64,000 nucleotides of DNA from Dictyostelium discoideum (lineage: Eukaryota): assembly GCA_000004695.1 (NCBI GenBank), contig CM000151.3, positions 704,001 to 768,000 on the forward strand, read 5' to 3'. Each line of letters starts with the position of its first letter. The stretch's first letter is position 1. Both the position numbers and the translations under genes were made by a program. This document shows positions 7,253 through 8,249 of the stretch, one piece after another. The notes under the pieces were generated by a model. That model did no database searches and was not told where the DNA came from. It saw nothing but the letters and a program-made list of their open reading frames with translations.

Positions 7253-8249
7253 ATGGAACCAATCAATAATATTGATAGAGTATTTTTAGTTTCTGGTACT
7301 TCAACTGGATTAGGTTTATCAATTGTTAAAAGGTTATTAGATAATAGTAGGTTTTTTTAATTTTTTGATTTAATTGCGTCCATCACCATTTATTAATTTT
7401 TTTTTTTTTTTTTTTTAAAAATATTTTATTATAATAATAGATTACAAAGTTGCAGCATTTACAAGATCAAAATTAATAGTTGAAAATGAAATTAAAAAAT
7501 ATTATGAAAATAATAATGAAAAAAATATTGATTATTTAAATTCATTATTAGCAGTTCAAGTTGATATTACAAATGAAGAAAGTGTTGAAAATGGTGTTAA
7601 AGAAACAGTTAATAAATTTGGACATTTTGATGTTGTAATTAATAATGCAGGATATGGTCAAATGGGTAACGTTGAAGAAACAAGTGATTAAGAAGCAAGA
7701 GCAATTTTCGATGTCAATTATTTTGCAATTTTAAATATTGTTAGATCAACAACACCATATTTAAGAAAACAAAAATCAGGTTTAATCTTGAATGTTTCAA
7801 GTATTGTAGGACATTTACCAAAAGGTAGCATTTCATCATACGTAGCTAGTAAATATGCTGTAACAGGTTTAACATTATCACTTGAACAAGAATTAGCACC
7901 TTTTAATATTAAGGTTGTATTATTATCACCTGGTGGATTTAGAACTATTATTACAAATAAAGAGAAATTCAAATTGGTAGAAAATCCAATTCCAGAGTAT
8001 TATCCAAATTCAACTCCTCAAAATTCACTTGAAGCATTTATTGGTTTGATGAATACTTCAAATGGTGATCCAAATAAATTTGCAAATGCAATTTTAAAAC
8101 TTGATTTAATTCATCAACAAGGTAATAAATTACCATCAAATATTTTCTTTGGTTCTGATGCTTTAGAAGGTTCTAGTCATTTCTTTAAATCATTAATTGA
8201 TGAATCTAATCAATGGAAAGAACTTGCTCTTTCAACTGACCGTTCTTAA
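7253..8249 (+). pseudogene. Short-chain dehydrogenase/reductase (SDR), interrupted by an in-frame TAA (nonsense allele or pseudogene)
   Basis: Two exons, join(7253..7346,7441..8249). Exon 1 reads MEPINNIDRVFLVSGTSTGLGLSIVKRLLDN (the TGxxxGxG Rossmann motif) and ends at donor GTAGGT. Exon 2 reads YKVAAFTRS...VINNAGYGQMGNVEETSD*EARAIFDVNYFAILNIV...SYVASKYAV (NNAG and YxxxK motifs). The TAA at 7689-7691 sits inside the conserved core. The ORF track restarts at 7788, which is consistent with this stop being present. Confidence 0.6.

Follow-up and report, generated by a model that had tools for sequence, protein, structure and literature searches.

Classical short-chain dehydrogenases (SDRs; Pfam PF00106) share a domain match over the whole length of the profile, a glycine motif of the form [ST]GxxxGxG, an NNAG motif and the codons for a catalytic Ser, Tyr and Lys. 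Duplicated (non-processed) pseudogenes keep their intron and flanking DNA, have a close intact paralog and may carry a single nonsense mutation. A third class of described systems concerns gene models: gene predictors sometimes bridge a stop codon with an 'intron', either ultra-short (PMC4675715) or falsely inferred with a length of 3n (PMC1950532), which has GT..AG ends, contains the sole in-frame stop, is homologous to coding sequence and usually offsets an error in the genome sequence. No GT-AG intron below 30 bp has been validated in NCBI Gene, and many of the ultra-short introns in annotations make up for defects in the sequence (PMC4675715). Introns of Dictyostelium discoideum have a median length of 104 bp and a mean of 133-146 bp (PMC4683709, PMC3188802).

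We compared these systems with an SDR gene located in a 64,000-nt stretch of D. discoideum DNA (hereafter the window, whose numbering is used unless a locus is named). A protein search identified the locus as the chromosome 2 (chr2) gene DDB_G0271748 of D. discoideum AX4, on an 8.48-Mb contig, with the 291-aa protein XP_645452.1 (UniProt Q55AS0; here P0001). The gene has the profile match, the motifs and the catalytic codons of classical SDRs, and it differs from them in a frame that is broken at codon 115 and in the replacements W106M and D201I at residues conserved among close relatives. The retained intron and flanking DNA, the close intact paralog and the single nonsense mutation of duplicated pseudogenes are all present as well, and we regard the chr2 SDR as very probably a duplicated (non-processed) pseudogene.

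The gene occupies 997 bp in two exons and has a conceptual product of 300 codons. Only one GT..AG first intron keeps the reading frame, giving the exons listed in Table 1, and the length of this intron ranges from 71 to 110 nt among seven related gene copies. The Pfam model adh_short (PF00106) spans residues 10-205 (E = 2.7e-44; 151 bits, against a cutoff of 26.6) and runs uninterrupted across the position of the stop. The encoded motifs are SGTSTGLG at residues 14-21, NNAG at residues 99-102, Ser152, and the Tyr165 and Lys169 of the YxxxK motif, with all three catalytic codons located 3' of the premature TAA. A first-pass annotation of this DNA, made from the sequence alone, had listed intact TGxxxGxG, NNAG and YxxxK motifs; the latter two are present as described, but the glycine motif begins with Ser and matches the broader [ST]GxxxGxG form. 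The gene thus belongs with the SDRs by profile and by its cofactor and catalytic motifs, while an uninterrupted frame for the full domain is lacking in two assemblies, both of which have TAA at codon 115. The nearest solved structure is PDB 3m1a, a 'putative dehydrogenase', to which an intact paralog of the gene aligns without gaps across the stop region. A tblastn search with the SDR protein found no SDR copy in the 64-kb window besides the gene itself, and nothing on DDB_G0271748 was found in the literature by gene ID or in the supplements of a Dictyostelium transcriptome re-annotation paper.

Table 1. Positions of the chr2 SDR gene, its lineage-specific changes and adjacent features in the window
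Feature	Position	Strand	Remarks
chr2 segment duplicated on chr6 in the AX4 lineage	2458..10082		matches L004:3742-8790; at least 7.6 kb
Degraded PIF/Harbinger-type (DDE_Tnp_4) transposase remnant	5465..6983	-	~1.5 kb; approximate bounds, in A/T runs
Exon 1 of DDB_G0271748	7253..7346	+	glycine motif SGTSTGLG at 7292-7315; K27R = AGG at 7331-7333, lineage-specific
Intron 1, genuine	7347..7440	+	94 nt; GTAGGT...AG; 86% A+T
Exon 2	7441..8249	+	NNAG at 7641-7652; S152 at 7800-7802, Y165 at 7839-7841, K169 at 7851-7853; normal stop at 8247-8249
W106M	7662..7664	+	TGG to ATG, 2 nt; Trp column in all close relatives
GT..AG segment spliced out in the public model	7666..7692	+	27 nt; encodes residues 107-115 (GNVEETSD and the stop)
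Premature TAA, codon 115	7689..7691	+	ancestral codon AAA (Lys); A>T transversion at 7689
L154V, A157L (2 nt), G161S cluster	7806..7829	+	lineage-specific replacements
D201I	7947..7949	+	GAT to ATT, 2 nt; Asp in all seven other close Dictyostelium copies
SDFI to IGLM (S232I, D233G, F234L, I235M)	8040..8051	+	four codons in a row changed

Within exon 2 the premature TAA is complete codon 83, in agreement with the first-pass annotation, and the open reading frame restarts at 7788, as also described there, with a TTG codon. A second assembly, GCA_054883475.1, contains the gene at a locus (L002), in a copy identical to the window gene at 997 of 997 bp, the TAA included. This locus is collinear with window positions 32-16270, from which it differs at 43 alignment positions, comprising 10 substitutions and gap columns, the latter located for the most part in homopolymer runs. 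Because of these 43 flanking differences over 16 kb, the second locus is not a copy of the reference. If GCA_054883475.1 derives from AX4 or NC4, the TAA is real, yet its occurrence there is silent on the frequency of the allele in nature.

The codon at the position of the stop is AAA (Lys) in seven of seven related copies, which comprise five syntenic orthologs and two extra copies. We recognised syntenic orthologs by shared neighbours, namely an upstream gene of ~600-700 aa, a minus-strand gene of ~1150-1270 aa (Pfam FUSC_2 where called) and a WD40 gene of 354-355 aa. The five are L003 and L005 (labelled D. discoideum), L006 (D. cf. discoideum), L007 (D. citrinum) and L008 (D. firmibasis), and all encode intact proteins of 298-300 aa. 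Across isolates and related species, the stop was therefore seen only in the AX4-like lineage (both of two assemblies), and the comparison indicates that the TAA is derived, by a single A>T transversion from AAA. The suggestion that the stop is one substitution away from a Glu codon, GAA, was correct in part: a single substitution does separate the TAA from its predecessor, and family-wide this column most often holds Glu (34 of 128 homologs, followed by Lys with 32), but the ancestral codon at this locus was AAA.

An intact paralog of the gene is found on chromosome 6 (chr6) of AX4 (XP_629499.1; P0124). It corresponds in the second assembly to ACTFIT_009416 (P0125) at locus L004, through which we characterised the chr6 locus. 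Besides the SDR, the duplicated segment includes the 3' portion of the upstream gene and a FUSC_2-domain gene that is truncated in the chr6 copy (603 aa, vs. ~1160 aa at chr2). Since the genes flanking the SDR on chr6 are truncated and other species share the chr2 context, the parental locus is chr2 and the daughter is chr6. In this respect the locus departs from the usual duplicated pseudogene, as the decayed copy is the ancestral syntenic one and not an inserted daughter. The chr2 and chr6 copies had a synonymous divergence of 0.027, vs. 0.066-0.114 between the chr2 copy and the orthologs of other strains. Because the former value is smaller, the strain splits are older than the duplication, or than the most recent conversion event between its two copies.

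We then assigned the differences between the two copies to branches by parsimony, with the other copies as outgroups. Since the chr2/chr6 split, the chr6 branch has had no nonsynonymous and 2-3 synonymous nucleotide changes. The chr2 branch has had 14 nonsynonymous changes (the nonsense change included) and 2-3 synonymous ones, giving an omega of ~1.4 that, on a small count of 17 changes, is compatible with pure neutrality or with brief positive selection before the stop arose. The chr2 replacements are K27R, W106M (2 nt), K115 to stop, L154V, A157L (2 nt), G161S, D201I (2 nt), S232I, D233G, F234L and I235M. Pairwise omega among the intact copies was 0.09-0.23. When the chr2 counts were evaluated by binomial test, they gave P = 3e-4 against an omega of 0.17 and P = 1.0 against neutrality, and Fisher tests of the chr2 branch vs. 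background pairs gave P = 0.004-0.007. Coding divergence was ~1.8% on the chr2 branch and ~0.3% for the chr6 copy; noncoding divergence between the duplicates was 3.0% (16 of 532 positions), or ~1.5% per branch. The chr2 copy therefore resembles duplicated pseudogenes both in its omega of ~1, vs. 0.1-0.2 elsewhere, and in evolving at a rate equal to that of neighbouring noncoding DNA. The number of stops is also that expected at random: ~6.3% of single-nucleotide changes to the coding sequence create a stop, so that 17 random substitutions would yield 1.06, and one was observed. These results indicate that the chr2 copy has been drifting neutrally since about the time of the duplication. The first-pass annotation had named a strain-specific nonsense allele and a young pseudogene as separate possibilities; both descriptions hold and come to the same thing, a stop confined to the AX4-like lineage in a gene with a neutral type of evolution. 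On the scale of divergence between species the pseudogene is young, yet it is older than an allele that differs by one mutation.

The distribution of the changes along the gene fits less well. The 16 polarised chr2 substitutions are clustered, with six neighbouring pairs no more than 4 nt apart (permutation P ~1e-4), and the interval 7331-8051 includes three double-hit codons (W106M, A157L and D201I) as well as the run of four consecutive changed codons. The stretches of the chr2 copy that contain the clustered changes are ATTGGTTTGATG, ACTATTATT and CATTTACCA. Such clustering is unusual for a duplicated pseudogene; simple drift by point mutation does not predict it, and it counts against an account of the pseudogene by drift. 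A divergent paralog was considered as a donor of the clustered changes and rejected, as the strings IGLM, RTIIT, HLPKGS and SIVGH occurred in no retrieved Dictyostelium homolog other than the AX4 model P0001. Our default guess is that the clusters reflect multinucleotide mutation events; the alternative is conversion from some other donor.

A real disabling mutation, relaxed constraint, and a retained intron and syntenic context together with an intact paralog were thus all found at the locus. As a duplicated pseudogene, the chr2 SDR very probably arose in the following way. A segment of at least 7.6 kb that included the SDR would have been copied from chr2 to chr6 in the AX4 lineage, after which the chr6 copy would have stayed under purifying selection and supplied the function. 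The chr2 copy would have been freed from constraint when the duplication occurred or shortly thereafter, and would then have drifted neutrally, gaining the AAA>TAA change at codon 115, 13 more amino-acid-changing substitutions and an upstream transposon remnant. Redundancy with the paralog is presumably the reason that the loss was tolerated. Translation of the chr2 copy would end after 114 residues, so that the glycine motif and NNAG would be kept and the helix of residues 114-142, Ser152, Tyr165 and Lys169 would be lost. In an AlphaFold model of the intact copy P0002 (62-sequence alignment; mean pLDDT of 93), residues 104-107 form a short strand after NNAG, and the helix of residues 114-142 starts at the position of the stop. 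Because this helix, the strands that follow it and the three catalytic residues would be missing, no active enzyme is expected from the 114-residue product. From the sequence, we infer that the chr2 copy has lost function, whether at the level of expression or of translation.

The upstream region of the gene is also altered in this lineage. An insertion of ~1.5 kb is present in the window and in L002, and it is absent from L003, L005, L006, L008 and the chr6 duplicate; in D. citrinum (L007), a tandem SDR gene occupies the corresponding interval. The transposon remnant in the insertion stops ~270 bp short of the SDR ATG, and its minus-strand frame is full of frameshifts and stops. A stitched translation showed 87% identity (E = 4e-45) to a D. 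discoideum protein with PF13359 (DDE_Tnp_4) and also matched DDB_G0281697, annotated as "Transposase Helix-turn-...". Scanned against Pfam, the stitched fragments from 5469-6977 had no match, and the link to DDE_Tnp_4 comes from the protein search alone. The remnant may have damaged the promoter of the SDR. As both junctions of the insertion lie in A/T runs, neither its exact ends nor a target-site duplication could be fixed; the sequence AAATTAAA is found at both of the blurred junctions. A scan of window positions 1-20000 revealed no tRNA genes, and hence neither a retro-element target nor a suppressor tRNA in that interval.

Public databases list the locus as protein-coding (XP_645452.1/Q55AS0), and the first alternative to a pseudogene is that the 27-nt segment at 7666-7692 is a genuine ultra-short spliceosomal intron whose removal eliminates the stop and leaves a functional 291-aa protein. 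Excision of intron 1 and of this segment followed by translation gives XP_645452.1 exactly, and P0001 aligned as the conceptual protein minus residues 107-115. The segment has GT..AG termini (GTAACG...TTAAG) and a length that is a multiple of three, and the same 291-aa model has been deposited for the second assembly, where it may be a lift-over from AX4. In length, however, the segment is below the validated minimum of 30 bp and far below the species median of 104 bp, and its composition (67% A+T) is coding-like, vs. 86% for intron 1. All nine columns that it encodes are occupied by residues in 127 of 128 homologs, the exception being the AX4 model. All orthologs have this GT and this AG, inside a GGT (Gly) codon and an AAA-GAA (Lys-Glu) codon pair, respectively. 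Excision would also take out the invariant E110 and the near-invariant G107, and the gene that remains shows no purifying selection. We therefore consider a functional gene with a genuine 27-nt intron to be very improbable.

The claim that the stop cannot be removed by any intron of plausible size was upheld when we enumerated all 80 in-frame GT..AG excisions that would do so: their A+T content is 61-74%, each deletes homologous coding sequence, and none is credible. The first-pass annotation had added that an annotated small intron spanning the stop would speak against a nonsense mutation. Such an intron does exist, in the form of the 27-nt segment of the public model, but on its length, A+T content, homology and conserved residues we judge it to be an annotation device, probably not spliced in the cell. 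It is like the stop-bridging introns made by gene predictors (PMC4675715, PMC1950532) in being a 3n GT..AG segment with the sole in-frame stop inside and with homology to coding sequence, and, like the ultra-short introns of PMC4675715, it is shorter than any validated intron. Those introns usually offset errors in the genome sequence, whereas the stop under 7666-7692 is a real allele.

A second alternative, to which we give the same low probability, is that the UAA is read through, or that the 114-residue N-terminal fragment has a function of its own, so that the locus would still be a working gene. The frame is open for 185 codons past the stop with the catalytic codons intact, and replacements amount to 3 nt changes in 342 nt before the stop vs. 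10 in 555 nt after it, a difference that is not significant. Yet neither a conserved stop nor downstream purifying selection, as expected for programmed read-through, was found: the stop is conserved in no relative, and the downstream codons evolve neutrally, with the radical changes D201I and SDFI>IGLM at conserved columns. With one stop expected under ~17 neutral substitutions, the open downstream frame is uninformative. Nor does an in-frame Met that could serve re-initiation occur before residue 235, and UAA is the predominant terminator in Dictyostelium.

Less probable again is 'intronization' by the nonsense mutation, in which splicing would at some frequency use a latent GT within the Gly107 codon and a latent AG across the stop and Glu116 codons, rescuing a 291-aa product. 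If true, this would represent the birth of an intron, and one far shorter than any other known in Amoebozoa. The least probable reading, an option left open by the first-pass annotation, attributes the TAA to an error of sequencing or assembly and takes the gene to be intact in the organism: a single base separates TAA from AAA, and the reference is a 2005-era Sanger assembly of a genome with 78% A+T, but the separately assembled GCA_054883475.1 has the same 997 bp with the TAA despite 10 SNPs and several differing homopolymer lengths in the 16-kb flank, and a single miscall would be insufficient to account for the 13 more lineage-specific amino-acid-changing substitutions common to both assemblies, which effectively excludes that the reference was miscalled at this codon.

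The chief value of these results is for curation. The entry for DDB_G0271748 (XP_645452.1, Q55AS0) needs a pseudogene flag, or at the minimum a nonsense-allele flag, the 27-nt intron should be dropped from its model, and the chr6 paralog XP_629499.1 would be the functional member of the pair. The locus also offers a datable case of decay in the parental copy after a duplication, with the daughter persisting, and it illustrates that tiny in-frame introns from gene predictors can mask real nonsense alleles and carry over into new assemblies. The phenomenon itself is ordinary, with two mildly unusual details, that the parental copy died and that its substitutions are clustered, and it bears on no open mechanistic question.

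We made several further observations on SDR copies and assemblies in this group. The AX4 chr6 model P0124 (XP_629499.1) is 289 aa long, and compared with the 300-aa model P0125 (L004:6001-6990) and with all orthologs it is short of 11 residues (the GLSIVKKLLDNN region); the intron-1 donor of the AX4 chr6 model is probably mis-set. A second close SDR copy is also found in other assemblies labelled 'discoideum' or cf. discoideum (L001:8001-9013, ACTFIR_009909; P0123; P0121). The copy in L001 has BRCT, profilin and G-alpha genes as neighbours, and only ~1.4 kb of that locus is homologous to the window. Because of this different neighbourhood and the short stretch of homology, the SDR has been copied independently, or moved, in different lineages. 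The likeness of SDR copies within a lineage hints at concerted evolution. In D. citrinum, the extra tandem SDR gene (L007:4478-5538; 302 aa) lies directly upstream of the ortholog of the window gene. The ACTFIT assembly was 99.7% identical to the window in the syntenic region, and the ACTFIR and ACTFIW assemblies, labelled D. discoideum, were ~93% identical to window positions 6978-14260 (L003, L005 and L006 compared). Deposits under one species name thus appear to span very divergent lineages.
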